DNA from: Rhodobacter sp.
Lineage (GTDB): Bacteria; Pseudomonadota; Alphaproteobacteria; Rhodobacterales; Rhodobacteraceae
Assembly: GCA_030065095.1 (NCBI GenBank)
Contig: JASJDP010000006.1
Coordinates: 16,777 to 80,776 of the forward strand
Reading direction: 5' to 3'
DNA length: 64,000 nt
The stretch's first letter is position 1. Every line of letters begins with the position of its first letter. This document shows, one piece after another, positions 15,034-58,496 of this stretch. Made by a program: the position numbers and the translations under genes. The notes beneath the pieces were generated by a model, which had not been told where the DNA came from, ran no database searches, and saw only the letters and a program-made list of their open reading frames with translations.

Positions 15034-15053
15034 TGAGCCTAAGATGAGCCTAA
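15034..15053. promoter_or_regulatory. tandem TGAGCCTAA 9-mers (11-bp register), candidate integrase arm-type sites overlapping the int start codon
   Basis: TGAGCCTAAgaTGAGCCTAA is read here. TGAGCCTAAaaTGAGCCTAA is read at 58365..58384, at the other island end. Confidence 0.5.
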
Positions 15054-16156
15054 CCGACGCACAGATAAAACGTCTGCGGGTCCCGGAAAAGGGGCAGAAG
15101 ACCTACTTTGACGACGGACTGTCCGGCTTTGGCGTCCGCGTTTCTCAAGGCGGTACCAAGACTTTCATTGCGTTGTGCGGACCTAAACGGAAACGGCATT
15201 CCATCGGGCGCTATCCCAACATGTCGCTGGCCGAAGCACGGGCGAGGGCCAAGAAAATCCAAGCCGAATTTGCCTTGGACAGCCCGATTGAGATTGCCCG
15301 ACCCTCGCTGGGGTTTGACGATGCGCGGCGGATGTTTTTGGCCGACAGCGAAAAGCGGAACCGGCCCCGGACGTTTGATGAATACCATCGCCTGCTGCAT
15401 CGGCACTTTGCGTTCAAGGGCAACTTGGATGAGATCGACAGGCATCAACTGGTGCGGGCGTTGGACAAACTAAAGTCCACCCCGTCCGAACAAAAGCATG
15501 CCTTTGTGGCCATCCGCACCATGATGAACTGGTGCTGCAAGCGCGGACACATTGACGTGTCGCCGGTGCCGCCGCTGACTTTCAAGACCACACCGCGCGA
15601 CCGGGTGCTGACCGCCGACGAATTGCGCACGGTGTGGCTGCGGGCCGAGGACTACGGCTATCCCTTCGGAGCAATTGTGCGACTGCTGATTTTGACCGGC
15701 CAGCGCCGTAGTGAAATCACCAACCTGCGTCGCAGTTGGCTGGAAGCAGACGCCATTACCTTCCCGACCGAGATCATCAAAAACGCGCGCGAACACACCA
15801 TCCCCATGGGCGATATGACCCGCACCCTGATCGCCGATCTACCCGAGCGCACCGACCTGCTGTTTCCGTCCCGCCTGAATGACGAAACGCCTTTCAACGG
15901 TTTCTCCCGCTCTAAACGCACCTTCGACCGGGAAATCGAGATCGAACCCTACACGCTGCACGACCTACGCCGCACCTTCAGCAGCCTCATGGCCAAGCTG
16001 GGCACGCCCATCCACGTGACCGAAAAAATTCTCAACCACACTTCCGGCACCATTAGCGGTGTGGCCGCTGTCTACAACCGCCACTCGTACCAAGACGAGA
16101 TGCGTGAGGCGTTGGCCGCCTATGAGGGCTATCTGCAAGATCTGATGAAGGCCTGA
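15044..16156 (+). CDS. int: tyrosine integrase, P4-like (DUF4102 N-domain plus phage-integrase catalytic domain)
   Basis: 370 aa with catalytic signature elements (TGQRRSE, HDLRRTFSS, LNHTSG...AAVYNRH). Located 133 bp from attL. Confidence 0.9.
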   Translation: MSLTDAQIKRLRVPEKGQKTYFDDGLSGFGVRVSQGGTKTFIALCGPKRKRHSIGRYPNMSLAEARARAKKIQAEFALDSPIEIARPSLGFDDARRMFLADSEKRNRPRTFDEYHRLLHRHFAFKGNLDEIDRHQLVRALDKLKSTPSEQKHAFVAIRTMMNWCCKRGHIDVSPVPPLTFKTTPRDRVLTADELRTVWLRAEDYGYPFGAIVRLLILTGQRRSEITNLRRSWLEADAITFPTEIIKNAREHTIPMGDMTRTLIADLPERTDLLFPSRLNDETPFNGFSRSKRTFDREIEIEPYTLHDLRRTFSSLMAKLGTPIHVTEKILNHTSGTISGVAAVYNRHSYQDEMREALAAYEGYLQDLMKA

Positions 16157-20250: not shown

Positions 20251-21099
20251 ATGACAGAGAACAACCTCGAATCTCAATACAAAGACTGTTTTGTAACTTT
20301 TTTCGACATTCTCGGCTTCTCTGAGCTGCTTAGGTCAAGAAGTCCGACACACATCGCAGAAATTCTTTCAGTTTTTAGAGCACTATCGATCAATGGAGAA
20401 GAACCTACGGCAATTGCCAATGCAAGCTTTCAGCCTCCTGCAAACGGCACTAGAATCGAAATTGTATCAGATGCGATTGTTCGGGTCCGGCCAAATAGAA
20501 TCGATCCGCTGACAAAAATGTCTGAGCTCTTCGACGAAATGATAGTCTTGAAGGAGATCCAGATTGGCTGCTTGCAAAAAGGCATTTTAGTCAGAGGGGC
20601 GACGACACTTGGGTCAATGTACATCGATGATGACCCCTCTGGGCCGATTTTTGGGCCTGCGCTTGCCGAAGCGTATCAGATCGAAAGTCGTGAAGTGATT
20701 TACCCGCGTATCGCCATTCACGGTGACGTTGTGGCTCGATTCAAACACGAAAAGAATCCGCTGCTCGCTGAATCATATCAGGTCGATGTAGAGATGCTCA
20801 AACTCCTACTGGCACGCGATGGCGCCGGCCTTTATTTCATCGATTATCTCCGTGTAAATTTTGAAGATCAGAACTGGAGCGCTGCCGAAACTTTTGATTT
20901 CTTGCGAAAGCACCGGAGTCTAATCCGTGATGGATTGAGAAACCATCATGGCAGTATAAGACGAAAATTCTCGTGGCTGCAAAACTACCACAACACATCG
21001 ATTGATCACGCCATACAACGCGGAATAGGTTCAGAGAGCTACCCGGAAGCAGGCGAGGTCAGCGCGTCAGCCTTGCATGCTCTCAAGATAGACGACTAA
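20251..21099 (+). CDS. class-III nucleotidyl-cyclase/GGDEF-like palm-fold protein (non-canonical)
   Basis: 282 aa in an AT-richer region (about 40% G+C in the 60-nt line at 20281). Ordered motifs FVTFFDILGFSELL, IEIVSDAIVRV, LVRGATTLGSMY and FGPALAEAYQIES mirror FxDIxGFT, GDxxM, RIGIHTG and GxxVNxAxRxE. The Asn/Arg positions look substituted. Confidence 0.45.
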   Translation: MTENNLESQYKDCFVTFFDILGFSELLRSRSPTHIAEILSVFRALSINGEEPTAIANASFQPPANGTRIEIVSDAIVRVRPNRIDPLTKMSELFDEMIVLKEIQIGCLQKGILVRGATTLGSMYIDDDPSGPIFGPALAEAYQIESREVIYPRIAIHGDVVARFKHEKNPLLAESYQVDVEMLKLLLARDGAGLYFIDYLRVNFEDQNWSAAETFDFLRKHRSLIRDGLRNHHGSIRRKFSWLQNYHNTSIDHAIQRGIGSESYPEAGEVSASALHALKIDD

Positions 21100-21787
21100 A
21101 GACGGTTCCGAATAGGTCAGCCTGCAATTCCCCATTGTGAGAAAGACCATAGTAAGAATCTATCTGGCGATGAAACTCTTTTTGCCCGCCGTAACTTGGA
21201 TGCCGAACTGTGCAGTATGCCATATCCACGGATTCGAGTGCTTTGGCCGCATCATTTCCGATCGTCACCACGCGTTCAACTGGTATAAGCGCTAGAACAG
21301 AAGTCAAGAAATCAAGCCCAACGTTGCGCTCTCGTCGGGTATGCATCCGGTTCGATTGAGGCTTATCCGACTCGTGCGGATGAAACGGAAAGACGTTCCA
21401 GAAGAACAGTTTTCGCGAAACTCGGGACCGAGCAAGATGAATCTCCGTGGCCGTACGCTCGCGCATGACCGGACCGACCGTAGCTTTCCTCAGCGTTTCA
21501 ACTTCGATCGATTGCGCATAGCCATCCAGCGAGGCCTCGTCAACGAGCGCGACTCCCGTCCGGCGTCCGCCACGCCATCCCAAATCGCGCCCGATCCAAA
21601 CGTCAACCTCATCTGCCTCAGCGCAGGCAATCAGAACCGCTCGCAGATTCTCGCGACGGACCGTGAAGCTGACTTCCACGTCCACATATTCGCAGTTCAT
21701 TGCCCACGGGTTGAAGACGCGTTCCGTTTCATAAGTCGAGAGTTCGTCGATGAATGCGTCTATTGCCGCTCGTAACCGCCTCACCAT
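21083..21787 (-). CDS. uracil-DNA-glycosylase-superfamily protein
   Basis: 234 aa from the ATG at 21787, which overlaps the upstream stop (ATGGTGA). IGRDLGWRGGRRTGVALVDE resembles UDG motif A. FFWNVFPFHPH...SNRMHTRRE and a C-terminal VRHPSYGG resemble UDG motif B (HPS). Confidence 0.6.
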   Translation of the reverse strand: MVRRLRAAIDAFIDELSTYETERVFNPWAMNCEYVDVEVSFTVRRENLRAVLIACAEADEVDVWIGRDLGWRGGRRTGVALVDEASLDGYAQSIEVETLRKATVGPVMRERTATEIHLARSRVSRKLFFWNVFPFHPHESDKPQSNRMHTRRERNVGLDFLTSVLALIPVERVVTIGNDAAKALESVDMAYCTVRHPSYGGQKEFHRQIDSYYGLSHNGELQADLFGTVFSRLS

Positions 21788-22371
21788 CGTCCAGGTTCGT
21801 TCACGTATCCACGCTCCGGCAGCCCCACTAACCATGCTTCTATCGCAACCAGGTCGTCTTCCGCAAACCTGCATTTGTGCCCCGGCCCTTTTTTTACGAC
21901 GCATCGTAGATGTTCTGGGAGCGGCAGCGCCGATTTGCCGTAGTACGCGAACTCAGCACTGATCAGCACTCTTTCCGTTGTACCAGTATCTCGTTCGCGA
22001 TTGGCAACGCTCAGGCTTCCGTCTTCTTCACTATGAAAGGAGTCCAGCTGCTGGAATGTACCGTCTTTTCCGGTCCGGTAGATGTTGTCGCCGTAGCGGT
22101 GCATCATACTGCCGCGCATGTTCGGCTTCTTGCGGGCAAATCGCGGGTCCGACCAATACTGGTCGAAAAGGATAATCTCCTCGACCTTCATCCAGTAAAC
22201 GAGGCGGCCTGACGCTCCGATTTCCGCCGACCCGGTGCCAACAACAAGGTCACCGACTTCGGCAGGTTTCCGTATCTGGGGTTTGCAATTCGCGAGCGTG
22301 CAATACCCCCAAAAAGGATTCGGCGCAAAACCATGGTCGTGTTGGACCACATAAGAGTAGAGCCGGGTCAC
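21781..22371 (-). CDS. Nmad2-like (nucleotide-modification-associated domain 2) protein
   Basis: 196 aa with a GTG start 3 nt after the upstream stop. The N-terminus LYSYVVQHDHGFAPNPFWGYCTLANCKPQIRK matches my memory of proteins annotated as the Nmad2 family. Needs HMM confirmation. Confidence 0.5.
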   Translation of the reverse strand: MTRLYSYVVQHDHGFAPNPFWGYCTLANCKPQIRKPAEVGDLVVGTGSAEIGASGRLVYWMKVEEIILFDQYWSDPRFARKKPNMRGSMMHRYGDNIYRTGKDGTFQQLDSFHSEEDGSLSVANRERDTGTTERVLISAEFAYYGKSALPLPEHLRCVVKKGPGHKCRFAEDDLVAIEAWLVGLPERGYVNEPGRW

Positions 22372-22374
22372 GAC

Positions 22375-22791
22375 TTAGCACTTGTTCCGCTTTGTTTTGG
22401 GTGCCGGACTGGGTTCTCCACCTGGCTCCTCCCAAACATCTTTCTCGCCCTTTAGCGTGACCGCAAGTTCAGGTGACTCAATATCCACGGTCACCCCATA
22501 CTTGGCCACACCATCGGGTACTCCGGCGACGCCGCCCTCCTTGCCGTGCAACCAAATGCACACGACACGGATGCCTGCGCCCGCAAACGCTTGCATCCTT
22601 TCATTCACGGCGGCTTCGTCTTCGGACGCAACCGGCAGACCGACGACACCAATGTCCGCATTCGGATCGAGGCTCGAGACATCTGAGGGGACGTCAGGCA
22701 CGGGCTCATAGCCCGCCGCTCGAACCGCGGCTTCAATCGCGGCGCGATCGGTAGCGTCAAGGTGTTCATTAAAAACATAGGCATTGGCCAT
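22375..22791 (-). CDS. hypothetical 138-aa alpha/beta protein (Rossmann/TIR-like?), basic C-terminal tail
   Basis: ATG preceded by AAGG, 11 nt after the upstream stop. No confident family. Confidence 0.5.
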   Translation of the reverse strand: MANAYVFNEHLDATDRAAIEAAVRAAGYEPVPDVPSDVSSLDPNADIGVVGLPVASEDEAAVNERMQAFAGAGIRVVCIWLHGKEGGVAGVPDGVAKYGVTVDIESPELAVTLKGEKDVWEEPGGEPSPAPKTKRNKC

Positions 22792-22802
22792 GGATTCGCC
22801 TT

Positions 22803-23456
22803 TCAGTTTCCAGATAGTGCCGTTGCAATCAGCGCGGCAATCGTGGCGCCGATCACTGCACCCGCTACCGCAACCCCTGAGGTTGCGTAGTAGAGTTGAC
22901 GAGCAAGATGATCGATACGCCTATTCAACGAGTTCAACGATGCAGTCTCGGTGGGAATCAAACCCATGAGTTCCGTGTCGATCTCTCGATATCCCGGCTT
23001 TTTTCGTTCGTAGTCTTTTGTCGCCTGATCGAGACGTGCCAACCAGATCAAGAAAGCGGGCTGGTCGCAGCGAACCGTCACCGTTTGAGGGCCAGCATTG
23101 AAAACCGCGAACATCAACTTGCCACTATACCCGGGGTCGACGTGAAACCCGCTCACGTTAACGAGGCCACTATTCTTTAATCCGCTCTTCATATTTATGA
23201 AGCCGAGTAAATCGTGAGGGAGGTTGATGAACTCGCGCGTAGGCAGGAAGGCGAACTGACCCGGCGGAATCACAATTGGCGCACCCTGATGTAGCCTTTG
23301 TGTGAGCCCGGGCTTGCGTGTGTCCCGTCCTTCAGGGCTTACGAACGCCTCGTCACCGACCCGCATCGTATAGGCCGCGCAGTCGACGCGTTCAGGGTCA
23401 AACGGAGTGATCCACGCCGCGCCATGTTCGGCGATTATGTCGCCCGAAAGAAACAT
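22803..23456 (-). CDS. dUTPase/dCTP-deaminase-superfamily protein with C-terminal coiled coil and TM anchor
   Basis: 217 aa. Matches Dcd/Dut blocks: PPGQFAFLPTREFINLPHDLLGFINMKSGL and HVDPGYSGKLMFAVFNAG. The C-terminus is SGVAVAGAVIGATIAALIATAL. The start overlaps the upstream stop (TGATG). Confidence 0.7.
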   Translation of the reverse strand: MFLSGDIIAEHGAAWITPFDPERVDCAAYTMRVGDEAFVSPEGRDTRKPGLTQRLHQGAPIVIPPGQFAFLPTREFINLPHDLLGFINMKSGLKNSGLVNVSGFHVDPGYSGKLMFAVFNAGPQTVTVRCDQPAFLIWLARLDQATKDYERKKPGYREIDTELMGLIPTETASLNSLNRRIDHLARQLYYATSGVAVAGAVIGATIAALIATALSGN

Positions 23457-23941
23457 CAGGTCTCCGGCGCGTGGACTGGCCGGCGCGCGAGTTGTTGGCG
23501 TCTTTCGTTGACCAGAGCATCGAGATCGAGACCGGCGACCGAGGCGCTACGCGCGATCCACTCGACTAGGGCAGCGTTCGCATCTAAGGCAATTGCCCGG
23601 AATTCCTCCAGATGATCGATCTTCTCACACGCATCTGCGAAACGCCCCGCTTGGTCAGTAAAGGTCAGGTCCGATGGTTCCTCTTCTTTCTCATTCTCGT
23701 AATTGAAGTCTGGCAGGGCTTGGTTGAGCGCGTTGGCGGCGCTAAGTGCAACCAGAAACGCGTCTACAAATGTTTCCGCCCTGCTCTTGACCTCGGTACT
23801 GCCGCGAGCAAAGCGCCCCGCGTACTTTGCGAAGTGCAATCCATAGTGCTTCAGTCGATCCGATCGCGAGAGCGATACAATGTCGAAGTGGTTGCGGAGA
23901 TCGTGTTCGTGCTGGGCTTGTTGCCGAGTTCGCATCAACAT
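23456..23941 (-). CDS. hypothetical all-alpha protein (weak MazG/HisE-like resemblance; function unassigned)
   Basis: 161 aa, helical by composition. AETFVDAFLVALSAANAL resembles the second MazG helix, but the EExxE motif is not evident. Confidence 0.4.
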   Translation of the reverse strand: MLMRTRQQAQHEHDLRNHFDIVSLSRSDRLKHYGLHFAKYAGRFARGSTEVKSRAETFVDAFLVALSAANALNQALPDFNYENEKEEEPSDLTFTDQAGRFADACEKIDHLEEFRAIALDANAALVEWIARSASVAGLDLDALVNERRQQLARRPVHAPET

Positions 23942-23965: not shown

Positions 23966-24244
23966 TCACTGAGCCGCGTAGCGCAAGCCAAGCTTCGCTA
24001 GAAGCTCGGTGGATTGGCGGCCTGACAAGTACGGACCCCTTGGTGGGAGATCGGCCATGTCGGCAGGTTCCACATCTGCGAACTTCGCTCCCGTCGAGAT
24101 CTCTGCGATCCGGCCGCCGTTCACGCCAAACCAGGCCGCTATATCGTGCTGTCGATCACCACGGGCGAGCATCCCCTTAACGATCGCTGCATCGCTTTCA
24201 TCCAAACGAATTCCGCTAGGCTCTGCCCTAAAAACCGTGTTCAT
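23966..24244 (-). CDS. small HTH-like DNA-binding protein
   Basis: 92 aa from the ATG at 24244 (MNTVFRAEPSG...). AAIVKGMLARGDRQHDIAAWFGVNGGRIAEI looks like a helix-turn-helix. The longer ORF to 24475 is rejected. Confidence 0.5.
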   Translation of the reverse strand: MNTVFRAEPSGIRLDESDAAIVKGMLARGDRQHDIAAWFGVNGGRIAEISTGAKFADVEPADMADLPPRGPYLSGRQSTELLAKLGLRYAAQ

Positions 24245-24479
24245 TATACTCTCCGTAGTGGCTCGAGTCCGGGTTTCCTCCATATATTGTGGCGGACTCC
24301 AAGTATTACAACCTCCGTCAAGGACACCACAAACCCGAGAATTCCGGATCGATAGGTTCGATCGCCCGCGACAGCCGCACATAGTTTGTCCGCTTCGCGC
24401 AATCGGACCGCATACAGACTCCGTGACAAGGGGTGGCGACCCGTTTCGCAATTCCTGTTCCTGCTCATTGCCCACCCGG

Positions 24480-24698
24480 TTACTTTTCCCTGACGGTCGT
24501 CCTCGGATTTGCCTTGCCGTGTTTCGCGGTTACGAAGCGCCCACTGATAGCGCTGCGATAGCTCCCACCGGTCGATCCGCTCTTTCCCGGCGCCTCTTTC
24601 ACTGTCGTCCGAGGATGCGACTTCCCATAGGCTTTCGTGACGTAGCGGCCTGAAGTCGCGCTGCGATAACCGCCGCCGACCTTCCCTTTCCCTGCCAT
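24480..24698 (-). CDS. 72-aa basic protein made of two tandem about 30-aa repeats
   Basis: GGYRSATSGRYVTKAYGKSHPRTTVKE is followed by GSYRSAISGRFVTAKHGKANPRTTVRE. ATG at 24698. Confidence 0.5.
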   Translation of the reverse strand: MAGKGKVGGGYRSATSGRYVTKAYGKSHPRTTVKEAPGKSGSTGGSYRSAISGRFVTAKHGKANPRTTVREK

Positions 24699-24757
24699 CG
24701 ATCTGCTCCTTTTCGTTGCATTTTGGCGGAGTTGGACTAAGAGTGGTTCTGAGTCCT

Positions 24758-24776
24758 TATGTAGACTATCTACATA
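24758..24776. promoter_or_regulatory. inverted repeat TATGTAG-ACTAT-CTACATA, candidate operator of the Xre/RES module
   Basis: Read directly. Lies about 48 bp upstream of the antitoxin ATG (24824), in the divergent intergenic region. Confidence 0.4.
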
Positions 24777-24823
24777 GAGACTCTCTGGGCCGTCAAGTCC
24801 AAAAGCGGACAACAGGAGGATCA

Positions 24824-25216
24824 ATGCAACCACATACAGATTCTGCGCCCGAACACGGCGCGGGAGCGGTCAGGATTCCAGCTGTCATGGATGCTTTCGC
24901 AAAGCTTGCCGAGGATTGGGAACTCTCGACCGATGAGCAAATTACACTTCTTGGTTCGCCCGGACGCTCAACATTCTTCAAGTGGAAGAAGTCCGGAGGC
25001 AATCTCCCACACGACACGATCGAGCGCATTTCTCATCTGCTTGGTATCTACAAATCGCTGCAGATCGTCCTTCCCGATCCCGAAGCGGCAGATGCGTGGG
25101 TCAAAAGACCGAACGCGTTCTTCGGCAACCGCAGCGCCCTCGATGTGATGCTCGAAGGGCACGTGGTCGATATCTATAAGGTGCGAGAATACCTCGATGC
25201 ACAACGTGGCGGGTGA
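24824..25216 (+). CDS. Xre/MbcA/ParS-type antitoxin (DUF2384 toxin-binding domain)
   Basis: ATG preceded by AGGAGGA. C-terminal WVKRPNAFFGNRSALDVMLEGHVVDIYKVREYLDAQRGG is typical of the family. Confidence 0.8.
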   Translation: MQPHTDSAPEHGAGAVRIPAVMDAFAKLAEDWELSTDEQITLLGSPGRSTFFKWKKSGGNLPHDTIERISHLLGIYKSLQIVLPDPEAADAWVKRPNAFFGNRSALDVMLEGHVVDIYKVREYLDAQRGG

Positions 25217-25943
25217 CTGTAACGTCAAAGATGTCGGTGACATCTTCTTCGTATTGATACCCTCACGGTTTCCGCCTGTGCCGCTCTACCGGCGCATCGC
25301 GGATGGTTACGACGACGACATCGCAGCTGTCGCCGAGCTTCACAATCCGCGCCTGAGAGAGAAACAGCGCGTGCTTGGAAATGCGGGCATCGCCGTTGAT
25401 GAGACATCCCCGCGTTTTCAGAATTGGAACCATGCACCCTTCACGTATTCGAACCCCGAAGGCAGCTGGTTTTTTGATCGGTTCGTGCGCTGTTTGGAGA
25501 TGTCGCAAGACAAGCAGACCGCCCTGGCGGTCTCCGTCGCAAAGAGAGAGCGCTTTCTTAAGCGGACAAAAGAAGCGCCCATTGGGTTGGACATGCGGAT
25601 GTTGAGCAGAAAGGTATCTGGCGCGTTTCTGGATGCGCAGTCGGTTCCCGCTGAGCTTCCACAGGAAGAGCGACGCAAGCTTGGAACGGAGCTTCTTGCT
25701 CGTGCAAAGCGCGATGCGCTCGCGGGCGTGCTGTTTCGATCGATCGAGCGACCAAGCGGCACCCGCGTTTGTGTACTAGATGGCGATGTGCTTGATCGGG
25801 CCATCCAGGGAGAGCACTTCAGATATGTCTGGGATGGCGATCGGGTGTCGACTCTCTACGCCTTCGACAACTCTGGCGGCGATGAAGACAACCAGATCGA
25901 CCCTCGCGATCTCGGCGGGCACACGGACATCCTTGCTGCTTAG
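25197..25943 (+). CDS. RES-domain toxin (NAD-targeting family)
   Basis: 248 aa, overlapping the antitoxin end by 20 nt. QTALAVSVAKRE and VLFRSIERPSGTRVCVL fit the Glu and Ser blocks. The Arg block alignment is less clear. Confidence 0.7.
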   Translation: MHNVAGDCNVKDVGDIFFVLIPSRFPPVPLYRRIADGYDDDIAAVAELHNPRLREKQRVLGNAGIAVDETSPRFQNWNHAPFTYSNPEGSWFFDRFVRCLEMSQDKQTALAVSVAKRERFLKRTKEAPIGLDMRMLSRKVSGAFLDAQSVPAELPQEERRKLGTELLARAKRDALAGVLFRSIERPSGTRVCVLDGDVLDRAIQGEHFRYVWDGDRVSTLYAFDNSGGDEDNQIDPRDLGGHTDILAA

Positions 25944-26871: not shown

Positions 26872-27813
26872 ATGCTTCACATCGACCTCGCCGGGTTCGA
26901 GGCCTATTGCCGTGACCAAAAGGGGCTCAGCGACCACAGTCTGCGCGCCTATCGCCAAGATTTACGGGCGTTCAACGCCTTTGTGGCGGATAGTACGCCC
27001 AGTGCAAAATTCTCGTCCGAGCTCGTGATTGCCTATCAACGCCATCAGCGAGACGTGAAATCGGCCAGCCCAGCCACCATTCGGCGCCGAATGGTGACTT
27101 TGCGCGCCTATTGCACCTGGCTGGAGCGGCAGCAATCGGGTTTCGCATCACCGTTCTCGGGTCTCGAATTGGACCTTCGTGTGCCCCAGCGTCTGCCACG
27201 CCCTGTAGACCGCCCAACGCTATCCGCCGTGTTTCGCGCCGCGCCACATTGTAGAGATGTCACAGAGTGTAGGGGTGTGGATGTTCGCGCAAATTCGGTG
27301 AGGCAGGGCCAGGTGACGGGATTGATCGTCCGCCTGCTAGTGGTCACCGGTCTGCGCATCGGCGAACTTACCCATACCCGCTTGCGCGACGTAAACGGTG
27401 CCGGGGCGCAGATAAGAGTGATGGGCAAAGGCAGCCGTGAACGGACGGTCTACGTCACCAATCATCGTCTGTTGGAAGACTTTGCGGTTTATCTCAGCCA
27501 ACGTCGTCAGGACGGGACACCAGACAGCTTCGTGTTCTTGAACACACGCGGTGGGCGCTTGACTGAAGCGGCCTTCCGCAAACGCCTACGCCAACTGTCC
27601 GCCGACCTTCAAATCGCGCCTCATATCACGCCCCACCGCTTCCGGCACTCCGCGGCTACTCTGTTGATCGAAGAGGGCGTCGATATCCGTCTTGTGCAGC
27701 GGCTTTTGGGGCATGCGAGCATCTCAACGACCGAAATTTACACCAAAGTGTCTGACAGTTCGCTGTTTCAGGCCATCGAGCACGCCGACACGCTGGCGAA
27801 GGTCGATTCCTGA
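26872..27813 (+). CDS. tyrosine recombinase, XerC/XerD-like
   Basis: 313 aa with an N-terminal SAM-like domain (LSDHSLRAYRQDLRAF) and catalytic blocks (TGLRIGEL, PHRFRHSAATLL, LLGHASISTTEIYT). Confidence 0.85.
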   Translation: MLHIDLAGFEAYCRDQKGLSDHSLRAYRQDLRAFNAFVADSTPSAKFSSELVIAYQRHQRDVKSASPATIRRRMVTLRAYCTWLERQQSGFASPFSGLELDLRVPQRLPRPVDRPTLSAVFRAAPHCRDVTECRGVDVRANSVRQGQVTGLIVRLLVVTGLRIGELTHTRLRDVNGAGAQIRVMGKGSRERTVYVTNHRLLEDFAVYLSQRRQDGTPDSFVFLNTRGGRLTEAAFRKRLRQLSADLQIAPHITPHRFRHSAATLLIEEGVDIRLVQRLLGHASISTTEIYTKVSDSSLFQAIEHADTLAKVDS

Positions 27814-58414: not shown

Positions 58415-58465
58415 TTTCAGTGGTGAGCCGTGCAGGATTCGAACCTGCGACCCACTGATTAAAAG
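58415..58465. repeat. attR-type direct repeat (51 bp), overlapping the 3' 45 nt of tRNA-Lys
   Basis: Identical to 14861..14911. Confidence 0.92.
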
Positions 58466-58496
58466 TCAGTTGCTCTACCAACTGAGCTAACGGCCC
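58421..58496 (-). tRNA. tRNA-Lys: tRNA-Lys (anticodon UUU)
   Basis: Hand-folded 76-nt cloverleaf: GGGCCGT acceptor pairing ACGGCTC, anticodon arm ACTGA-CTTTTAA-TCAGT, T-arm GCAGG-TTCGAAT-CCTGC, encoded CCA. Confidence 0.92.

Follow-up and report, generated by a model that had tools for sequence, protein, structure and literature searches.

We describe DCD-TM, a protein of the DCD/dUTPase superfamily encoded in a 64,000-nucleotide (nt) stretch of a Rhodobacter sp. genome (assembly GCA_030065095.1, contig JASJDP010000006.1, positions 16,777 to 80,776 of the forward strand), called the window below. DCD-TM joins a putatively nucleotide-binding β-barrel to a short stalk and a single predicted transmembrane (TM) helix, and residues required for catalysis in its soluble relatives are replaced throughout its family. 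DCD-TM and an all-α partner resembling nucleoside triphosphate (NTP) pyrophosphatases make up the part that stays constant in a gene cassette spread by horizontal transfer. This cassette is probably an anti-phage system and would act on pyrimidine nucleotides. The explanation that we favour as a whole, in which a tail-anchored DCD/dUTPase-fold protein acts as a nucleotide receptor within a mobile defence cassette, is put forward tentatively, with a chance slightly short of even.

Fold, active-site residues and predicted membrane anchor of DCD-TM

The DCD-TM open reading frame (ORF) is complete and has no internal stops. An initial annotation, made from the letters of the DNA, had placed its product in the Dcd/Dut fold, and profile and structure comparisons both agree. 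The Pfam DCD profile (PF22769) matches residues 11-132 with 65.5 bits (cut-off 27). The protein falls under the cut-off of the dCTP deaminase equivalog TIGR02274 (73.5 vs 92.8 bits), just under that of Pfam dUTPase PF00692 (21.7 vs 22) and far under that of NCBIfam dut TIGR00576 (27.9 vs 102.55). An AlphaFold2 monomer prediction, computed from a 62-sequence alignment, has a predicted local distance difference test score (pLDDT) of 90.3 and comprises a β-barrel (residues 1-141) and a single unbroken helix (residues 169-215). The pLDDT is 94-96 up to residue 160 and drops to 62-72 at residues 161-180; a lid-like segment packs well to about residue 160, before the lower-confidence linker. Foldseek comparison of this model with the PDB gave a probability of 1.00 for Dcd, DCD-DUT and dUTPase structures. 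The dUTPase from T. pacificus ranked first (8y1w, target-normalised template modelling score, TM-score, of 0.86), and the P. furiosus dUTPase P45 (9ln0/9ln3; 0.80 for 9ln0) was also among the top matches. These archaeal enzymes scored above the bifunctional DCD-DUT proteins and E. coli Dcd, and the classical trimeric dUTPases (EC 3.6.1.23) came far behind.

The archaeal Dcd-like dUTPases (9ln0/9ln3 and 8y1w) and DCD-TM share the same DCD-type barrel, with 27-30% identity and TM-scores of 0.80-0.86. Both are non-acidic at the position of Dcd Glu138 and both carry a VDPG[W/Y] hairpin. The archaeal enzymes are soluble, of about 155 residues, and keep the motif-1 Asp (in GYDL), an RSSLAR motif and the Gln of motif 4; the DCD-TM family has T/R/E, K-x-x-L-K and Leu, respectively, at these places and is extended by a stalk and a TM anchor. 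E. coli Dcd (1xs1) and the DCD-DUT enzymes of M. jannaschii (1ogh), M. tuberculosis (2qlp) and B. halodurans (4xjc) likewise share the fold and the nucleotide-binding hairpin with DCD-TM. The C-terminal lid of these proteins (Y-x-G-K-Y-Q type) is not found in DCD-TM, which has the linker, the coiled coil and the TM helix there.

Residue conservation was counted in an alignment of the best 150 representatives, one per cluster at 50% identity. The HMMER alignment of DCD-TM to wild-type E. coli Dcd (1xs1) and to its E138A mutant (1xs4) has a register that agrees with the known numbering, and it places Ala117, Asn95 and Ser91 at Dcd Glu138, Arg115 and Ser111, respectively. The absence of the deaminase Glu, noticed in the initial annotation, extends to the whole family: position 117 is Ser in 73 representatives, Ala in 59, Gly in 15 and Thr in 3, and Glu or Asp in 0 of 150. 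Position 95, Asn in the window, is Phe, Leu, Trp or Tyr across the family, and position 91 is Ala (88), Ser (40) or Thr (14), so that of the Glu/Ser/Arg set of Dcd the window protein retains the Ser. The family-wide loss of counterparts to Glu138 and Arg115 means that DCD-TM cannot act as a dCTP deaminase (EC 3.5.4.13).

The same annotation had called the protein more Dut-like. This holds for the nearest solved structures, which are Dcd-like dUTPases; it fails for three features kept by those enzymes or by classical Dut and lost here, namely the Asp of motif 1, the Gln of motif 4 and the arm of motif 5. Position 30, at the motif-1 Asp, is Thr in the window and mostly Thr (91), Arg (18), Glu (13) or Gln (9) among the representatives, where P45 has GYDL. 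The motif-4 Gln of dUTPases (R-I-A-Q type) helps to position the attacking water. The corresponding position 136 is Leu in 118 representatives and Gln in 2; elsewhere it is Gln in P45 (FVQ) and in the B. halodurans DCD-DUT (ICQ), and Ala in the monofunctional E. coli Dcd. The C-terminus of DCD-TM contains no Gly-rich motif-5 arm of the RGxxGFGS type, and the motif-2 Ser is not conserved in the family. Most of the dUTPase hydrolytic set is thus gone from the DCD-TM family, and a plain dUTP/dCTP hydrolase, one of two functions first suggested, is not well supported, since the dUTPase motif residues are lost.

The predicted pocket for recognition of the base, deoxyribose and triphosphate is kept. 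The motif-3 hairpin SGFHVDPGY (S102-Y110) is near-invariant, with the family form SGFHVDPG[Y/F/W], and position 110, where dUTPases have the aromatic residue that stacks on the sugar, is always aromatic (Tyr 86, Phe 39, Trp 25). Near-invariant positions comprise G34, Q67, E75, P80, K94, N100, S102, G103, H105, D107, P108, G109 and N120; among them S102 and N120 are kept in 150 of the 150 representatives, K94 and N100 in 149, H105 in 148, and D107 and Q67 in 147. Position 90 is Lys or Arg in all representatives and position 151 mostly so, and K/R90, K94 and K/R151 would be basic residues suited to triphosphate binding. The second function first suggested, a nucleotide sensor at the membrane, fits this residue pattern at least as well as a hydrolase.

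The C-terminal stalk and single TM helix of the initial annotation are likewise borne out by hydropathy, by the AlphaFold2 model and by conservation across the family. The 19-residue Kyte-Doolittle hydropathy peaks at 2.22 over residues 195-213. The helix has about 30 residues without charge, with Arg residues on its N-terminal side and three residues beyond it, and is rich in small-xxx-small motifs. Of the 120 closest homologues, 118 have a similar hydrophobic helix after the DCD domain, as do 140 of the 150 representatives, a recurrence that is far beyond chance. The coiled coil is short, consisting of an a/d heptad run of L174, L177, I181, L184 and L188; S173 and L177 are near-invariant in the representatives, and only hydrophobic residues occur at positions 181 and 184. 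The sequence of the TM helix, the length of the stalk and the tail beyond it (1-107 residues, median 47) differ among relatives. The N-terminal extensions or odd C-termini of some representatives (P0170, P0179, P0143 and P0216) were considered as domain fusions and look like mis-called starts or frameshifts.

The DCD-TM cassette in the window and in other genomes

DCD-TM is the second of five minus-strand genes, in the order U161, DCD-TM, T138 (TIR-like), Nmad2 and a uracil-DNA glycosylase (UDG)-like gene, which follow one another with overlaps or gaps of 3-11 nt (Table 1). The stop codon of U161 and the start codon of DCD-TM overlap by 1 nt (TGATG).

Table 1. Positions, in window coordinates, of DCD-TM and its segments, of the other cassette genes and of surrounding features
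Feature	Position	Strand	Remarks
DCD-TM	22803..23456	-	217 aa; coordinates include the stop codon
DCD/dUTPase β-barrel	23022..23456	-	residues 1 to ~145
Lid-like segment and flexible linker	22953..23021	-	residues 146-168; conserved K/R151, G155, I159
Short coiled-coil stalk	22890..22952	-	residues 169-189, SLNSLNRRIDHLARQL
Predicted C-terminal transmembrane tail anchor	22815..22889	-	residues 190-214; followed by SGN (3 residues)
U161	23456..23941	-	161 aa, all-α, translationally coupled partner of DCD-TM
T138, TIR-like (ThsB-like)	22375..22791	-	138 aa
Nmad2	21781..22371	-	196 aa; Pfam Nmad2 PF18753, 3e-66
UDG-superfamily protein	21083..21787	-	longest ORF extends to 21904
Integrated island	14000-58500		GC content 44-61% vs 61-66% at the window ends
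Integrase-like ORF	~15044-16156		
Integrase-like ORF	26872-27813		
Very low-GC block	28-30 kb		
tRNA-Lys gene	58421-58496	-	
Xre-type antitoxin and RES-domain toxin pair	24716-25943	+	PF09722, PF20432 (antitoxin)
ORF upstream of U161, nearer	23966-24475	-	24 nt from U161
ORF upstream of U161, farther	24480-24833	-	
ORF convergent on the UDG-like gene	20251-21099	+	282 aa

The AlphaFold2 model of U161 (pLDDT 92.8) is entirely a helical bundle. Its best Foldseek matches in the PDB are dimeric dUTPases (5myi, 2yay and 4dkb) with probabilities of 0.72-0.92 and E-values of only 0.35-0.7, and its profile weakly matches the MazG-type pyrophosphohydrolase 5ie9 (E 0.16). His, Asp and Glu are abundant among its invariant residues. 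The protein has no match in Pfam, NCBIfam or PADLOC. Against the MazG domain of the MazG-MazG_C proteins, hhalign gave a weak result (E 0.014, probability 3%), so that the fold assignment follows the Foldseek trends only. U161 probably has an all-α NTP-pyrophosphatase fold of the dimeric-dUTPase/MazG-like kind.

T138 matches ThsB in PADLOC (4.3e-5) and, weakly, the TIR protein of the E. coli system DS-4 (DS-4D, WP_072044445.1) in BLASTP (E 0.007); both lie directly upstream of Nmad2. Pfam and PDB profile searches with T138 returned nothing informative. An R-N-[K/R]-C sequence is invariant at the C-terminus of the T138 family, and Cys is likewise the last residue of the DS-4 TIR protein; the conserved terminal Cys hints at processing or conjugation. 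The window Nmad2 is 48% identical to that of DS-4 (DS-4E, E 2e-47). The probable start of the UDG-like protein is Met40 of the longest ORF, and with this start the gene shares 7 nt with the end of Nmad2; orthologues of the protein have 222-234 residues. The Pfam UDG profile matches the window protein weakly (8.4e-4) and an orthologue above cut-off (30.1 vs 24.3 bits), and the family profile matches the family-4 UDG TM0511 (1vk2) with an E-value of 0.0023. GRDLGxRGG and HPSYGG motifs are invariant in the family.

Gene neighbourhoods were compared after ORF calling and clustering, using 80 species-genome loci of 485 confirmed matches and loci from four homologues. Among the resulting 85 loci, 84 have a U161 orthologue or MazG_C beside DCD-TM: U161 orthologues are directly upstream in 31, with a spacing of mostly -4 to +17 nt, and a MazG-MazG_C fusion is nearby in 57. 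Both CapH- and CapP-like regulators are present at 52 loci (PADLOC capH 3.9e-17, capP 5.8e-9). A thymidylate-synthase-like (TS-like) protein and an HMUDK_hel protein each occur at 54, a UDG-like or DUF1643 gene at 27, Nmad2 at 13 and the TIR-like protein at 10. DUF1643 was not taken as shown to be UDG-like, since its hhalign comparison with the UDG-like cluster was not significant. A search of the partner genes against PHROGs added nothing.

The TS-like protein (about 300 residues, e.g. L018:4400-5356) has no Pfam match. The best PDB match of its profile is the CMP 5-hydroxymethylase MilA (5b6d, E 0.024), and a Cys is invariant at the nucleophile position; by this profile it is a divergent enzyme of the predicted thymidylate-synthase fold. 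Small proteins encoded upstream of it resemble carrier proteins (PP-binding, E 0.034), and at one locus (L005) a phosphopantetheinyl transferase gene adjoins DCD-TM.

In Rhizobium rhizogenes the operon comprises CapH, CapP, a C1 peptidase, the TS-like protein, an 81-residue protein, U161, DCD-TM, the TIR-like protein, Nmad2, MazG_C and UDG. The reduced five-gene form of the window is also found in Acetobacteraceae and Halomonas metagenome-assembled genomes (MAGs), and in a Rhodobacter MAG, where the UDG-like gene has the opposite orientation; in Larsenimonas the first four genes are present and a UDG-like gene was not detected. In larger relatives of the cassette the papain-like C1 peptidase adjoins the ImmA/CapP-like protease. 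A compact variant in Sphingomonadales (L039, L043, L055, L064, L072 and L075) consists of a small protein of cluster c42, with no assigned function, U161 and a long-tailed DCD-TM; it also has a convergent DUF1643 gene (1e-34 to 9e-36), and integrase genes are close by in two of these loci.

The variable modules of the cassette, namely TIR-like plus Nmad2, the UDG-like glycosylase, and TS-like plus HMUDK_hel, overlap with those of DS-4. The latter, composed in E. coli of a thymidylate synthase, a dNMP kinase, HMUDK_hel, TIR and Nmad2, was validated as anti-phage by DefensePredictor, while cassettes with MazG, MazG-C, dUTPase, NMAD and UDG have a defence role by prediction only (PMC13092281). 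The window cassette resembles DS-4 in its Nmad2 and in the TIR-like gene directly upstream, and its relatives do so in the TS-like enzyme and HMUDK_hel. DS-4 is without DCD-TM, the U161/MazG partner and UDG, and the window cassette, unlike DS-4, is without thymidylate synthase, kinase and HMUDK_hel. Phage protection has been shown for DS-4 itself only, a system without a DCD-TM gene. DCD-TM, U161, Nmad2 and the UDG-like protein have no match in PADLOC, and the cassette is thus absent from the defence systems catalogued in PADLOC-DB v2. The anti-phage "dCTPdeaminase" of PADLOC and DefenseFinder is a P-loop kinase fused to a deaminase of the CDA/APOBEC fold (PMC13092281, domain table). Its fold differs from that of DCD-TM, and the likeness is limited to the dCTP-related name.

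A word-indexed search returned 2,090 DCD-TM homologues, and a full HMMER scan of 1.84 billion representatives gave 774 clusters (50% identity) at E <= 1e-30. Relatives are present in at least 485 species genomes, and nine members lie on plasmids, with annotations of dCTP deaminase or hypothetical protein. The distribution is patchy: only 2 of 61 related genomes have a member. The window protein has its closest relative in Rhizobium rhizogenes, at 77-78% identity. In a maximum-likelihood tree, DCD-TM tracks the type of partner (6 changes, vs 25 with shuffled labels) and not taxonomy, which indicates that DCD-TM and its partner are transferred horizontally as a unit. Two loci, in a MAG assigned to Ca. 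Elarobacter (Vulcanimicrobiota; L053) and in one assigned to Rhodanobacter (Gammaproteobacteria; L054), have identical DCD-TM proteins and the same neighbours; either the transfer was very recent or the binning is at fault. A search of 50,697 phage records found no member of the family; the nearest proteins there are distant haloviral Dcd-like dUTPases with 28-31% identity and no tail.

These data bear on two further explanations. DCD-TM might be an ordinary accessory dUTPase/Dcd paralogue that serves the replication hygiene of the island, or a decaying remnant, its tail being incidental. Mobile elements often carry dUTPases, and homologues are annotated as "dUTP pyrophosphatase" or "dCTP deaminase". 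We consider this very improbable: the architecture and the distinctive invariant residues are held over the 774 clusters, operon coupling is tight and conserved, the curated equivalog cut-offs are not reached and the ORF is intact. The host genome, moreover, has its own housekeeping genes, a 376-residue tandem-DCD protein and a separate Dut-like gene, in line with the early view that DCD-TM is neither the housekeeping Dcd nor Dut.

Alternatively, the cassette could serve the mobile element as a pathway for DNA base hypermodification or for the handling of uracil, in self-DNA modification or anti-restriction, with DCD-TM as one of the enzymes that supply its nucleotides. Pfam Nmad2, HMUDK_hel and MazG_C were defined from DNA-hypermodification gene neighbourhoods, the HMUDK_hel protein is named "putative DNA base hypermodification protein" at NCBI, and the cassette lies on islands and plasmids. 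Phages are the usual home of such pathways, and the absence of members from the phage collection makes this explanation improbable, as do the CapH/CapP regulators typical of defence operons, the protection of E. coli by the related DS-4, and the loci themselves, in which a DNA polymerase, a transferase or a modification-dependent partner is not conserved. The defence reading draws instead on the capH/capP regulators that head most versions of the cassette, the Nmad2 and TIR genes shared with DS-4, the absence from phages, the patchy distribution and the location on an island.

Genomic island and neighbouring genes

The cassette lies in an integrated island distinguished by its lower guanine-plus-cytosine (GC) content and carrying two integrase-like ORFs and a very low-GC block (Table 1). 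The tRNA-Lys gene near one end is a possible attachment site. The toxin-antitoxin pair, formed by an Xre-type antitoxin and a RES-domain toxin, is divergent from the cassette.

Two co-oriented ORFs lie upstream of U161. One has a weak match to a KorA-like helix-turn-helix protein (E 0.0028), and the other encodes a small Gly/Lys/Arg-rich protein with an internal repeat. Neither is a conserved neighbour of DCD-TM at the 85 loci; a role as local regulators in place of CapH/CapP is possible. On the other side of the cassette, a 282-residue ORF is convergent on the UDG-like gene, and the 3' ends of the two overlap. It matches phrog_23933 (function unknown) with an E-value of 2.6e-22, and its sole homologue in the 85 loci lies beside MazG_C-UDG (L084, 14240-15070), so the ORF may at times accompany the cassette as an accessory gene. 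Its identification as a nucleotidyl cyclase was considered and set aside, being unsupported by Pfam or PDB sequence searches, neither of which gave a match.

Possible roles of DCD-TM

We propose that DCD-TM would be a tail-anchored homotrimer, with a cytoplasmic barrel standing on a coiled-coil stalk that runs into one C-terminal membrane helix per subunit. In trimeric dUTPases the active sites lie where the subunits meet. The head would bind a pyrimidine deoxynucleoside triphosphate (dNTP), which could be dUTP, dCTP or a C5-modified derivative made or unmasked in infection. Occupancy by the ligand would be passed via the stalk to the membrane helices, either as an output or as a control of partner enzymes. 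That DCD-TM is mainly such a ligand receptor or membrane output, and not a canonical hydrolase, is a possibility to which we lean with reservation. A receptor role is favoured over that of a pyrophosphatase on account of the near-universal TM anchor and of the failure of four among the five motif features of dUTPases.

The residue pattern has a direct precedent in KomB of the Kongming system. KomB is a homologue of HAM1/ITPase pyrophosphatases in which the catalytic Asp is replaced and the binding residues are kept, and it is a receptor for dITP (10.1101/2024.12.20.629578; PMC13454610). Like DCD-TM, it is a homologue of a nucleotide-sanitising enzyme with catalytic residues lost and predicted binding residues kept, and it is encoded in an anti-phage operon, as DCD-TM probably is. 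The two differ in fold, which is unrelated, and in output, as KomB signals to a SIR2 NADase and not via a membrane helix. As to architecture, the combination of a putatively nucleotide-binding soluble domain and a TM helix in DCD-TM fits effectors such as Cam1, PycTM and Cap15, with which it has no sequence relationship. These three proteins are ligand-gated membrane effectors of abortive-infection systems, in which a soluble domain that binds a nucleotide is fused to one or more TM helices and the membrane is disrupted when the ligand binds; such gating would be speculative for DCD-TM.

A more specific scheme can be drawn, in which the trimeric head, devoid of deaminase and hydrolase chemistry, would make DCD-TM a new class of immune receptor-effector for a non-canonical or base-modified pyrimidine dNTP. 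The ligand would come from the enzymes of the cassette itself or from the infecting phage. Closure of the lid would be transmitted by the stalk, three small-residue-rich helices would assemble, and these would depolarise the membrane, or release or activate partner enzymes. In uninfected cells, the all-α pyrophosphatase partner would destroy the ligand and so set the threshold. Taken as a whole, this scheme is speculative and we regard it as unlikely.

Several observations weigh against a receptor within a defence cassette. D107, the motif-3 Asp that serves as the general base of dUTPases, is retained, and the invariant H105, N100, N120, Q67 and D25 could form a new catalytic site. Hydrolysis by DCD-TM thus remains conceivable from D107 and these polar residues, and the closest solved relatives are active dUTPases. 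The poor conservation of the TM sequence and the variable tail suit a simple anchor as well as an effector, and a bundle of three helices is not obvious as a pore. Both the trimeric state and the membrane orientation of DCD-TM are inferred. The scores that support the NTP-pyrophosphatase fold of U161 are weak. In addition, the window cassette is without CapH/CapP, the TS-like enzyme, HMUDK_hel and MazG_C, the last of which was not found anywhere in this genome, and the context of the relatives may not be fully transferable to it. A literature search found no paper that tests a DCD-TM protein, whether biochemically, genetically or in a defence assay.

The closest alternative is an active, non-canonical pyrimidine dNTP pyrophosphatase, dUTPase- or dCTPase-like, working alongside the all-α partner, with an anchor that merely localises it. 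It could provide the TS-like enzyme with dUMP or dCMP, much as gp56 of T4 does for gp42, or else drain or clean up a dNTP pool during infection. The best sequence and structure matches, 8y1w and 9ln0, are Dcd-like dUTPases that are active although they, too, have no Glu at this position, and D107, the aromatic residue 110, K/R90, K94 and K/R151 are conserved together with the extra invariant polar residues. About 54 of the 85 operons combine the TS-like enzyme with the predicted kinase MazG_C, which makes a pathway from dNTP to dNMP, modified dNMP and modified dNTP plausible. Such an enzyme would have to act with motif-1 Asp, motif-4 Gln and motif-5 arm absent and with a variable motif-2 Ser; the window cassette has no TS-like enzyme or kinase for it to feed, and the near-universal TM anchor is given no role. 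We therefore consider an active pyrophosphatase somewhat unlikely, and keep a nucleotide receptor in a mobile defence cassette as the explanation that we tentatively prefer.

DCD-TM is a distinct variant of the DCD/dUTPase superfamily and not a categorically new protein; its family is large and its cassette is predicted to be defensive. The superfamily consists, in textbooks, of soluble housekeeping enzymes, and the DCD-TM branch departs from this in being predicted to be membrane-anchored, in having lost catalytic residues and in residing on mobile elements. Establishing its function would clarify how the "nucleotide-modifying" defence systems, DS-4 and its relatives, work. If DCD-TM is an enzyme, it could represent a new way of hydrolysing dNTPs. 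If it is a receptor, it could join Kongming as the second case in which immunity has turned a nucleotide-sanitising enzyme, once disabled, into a receptor.

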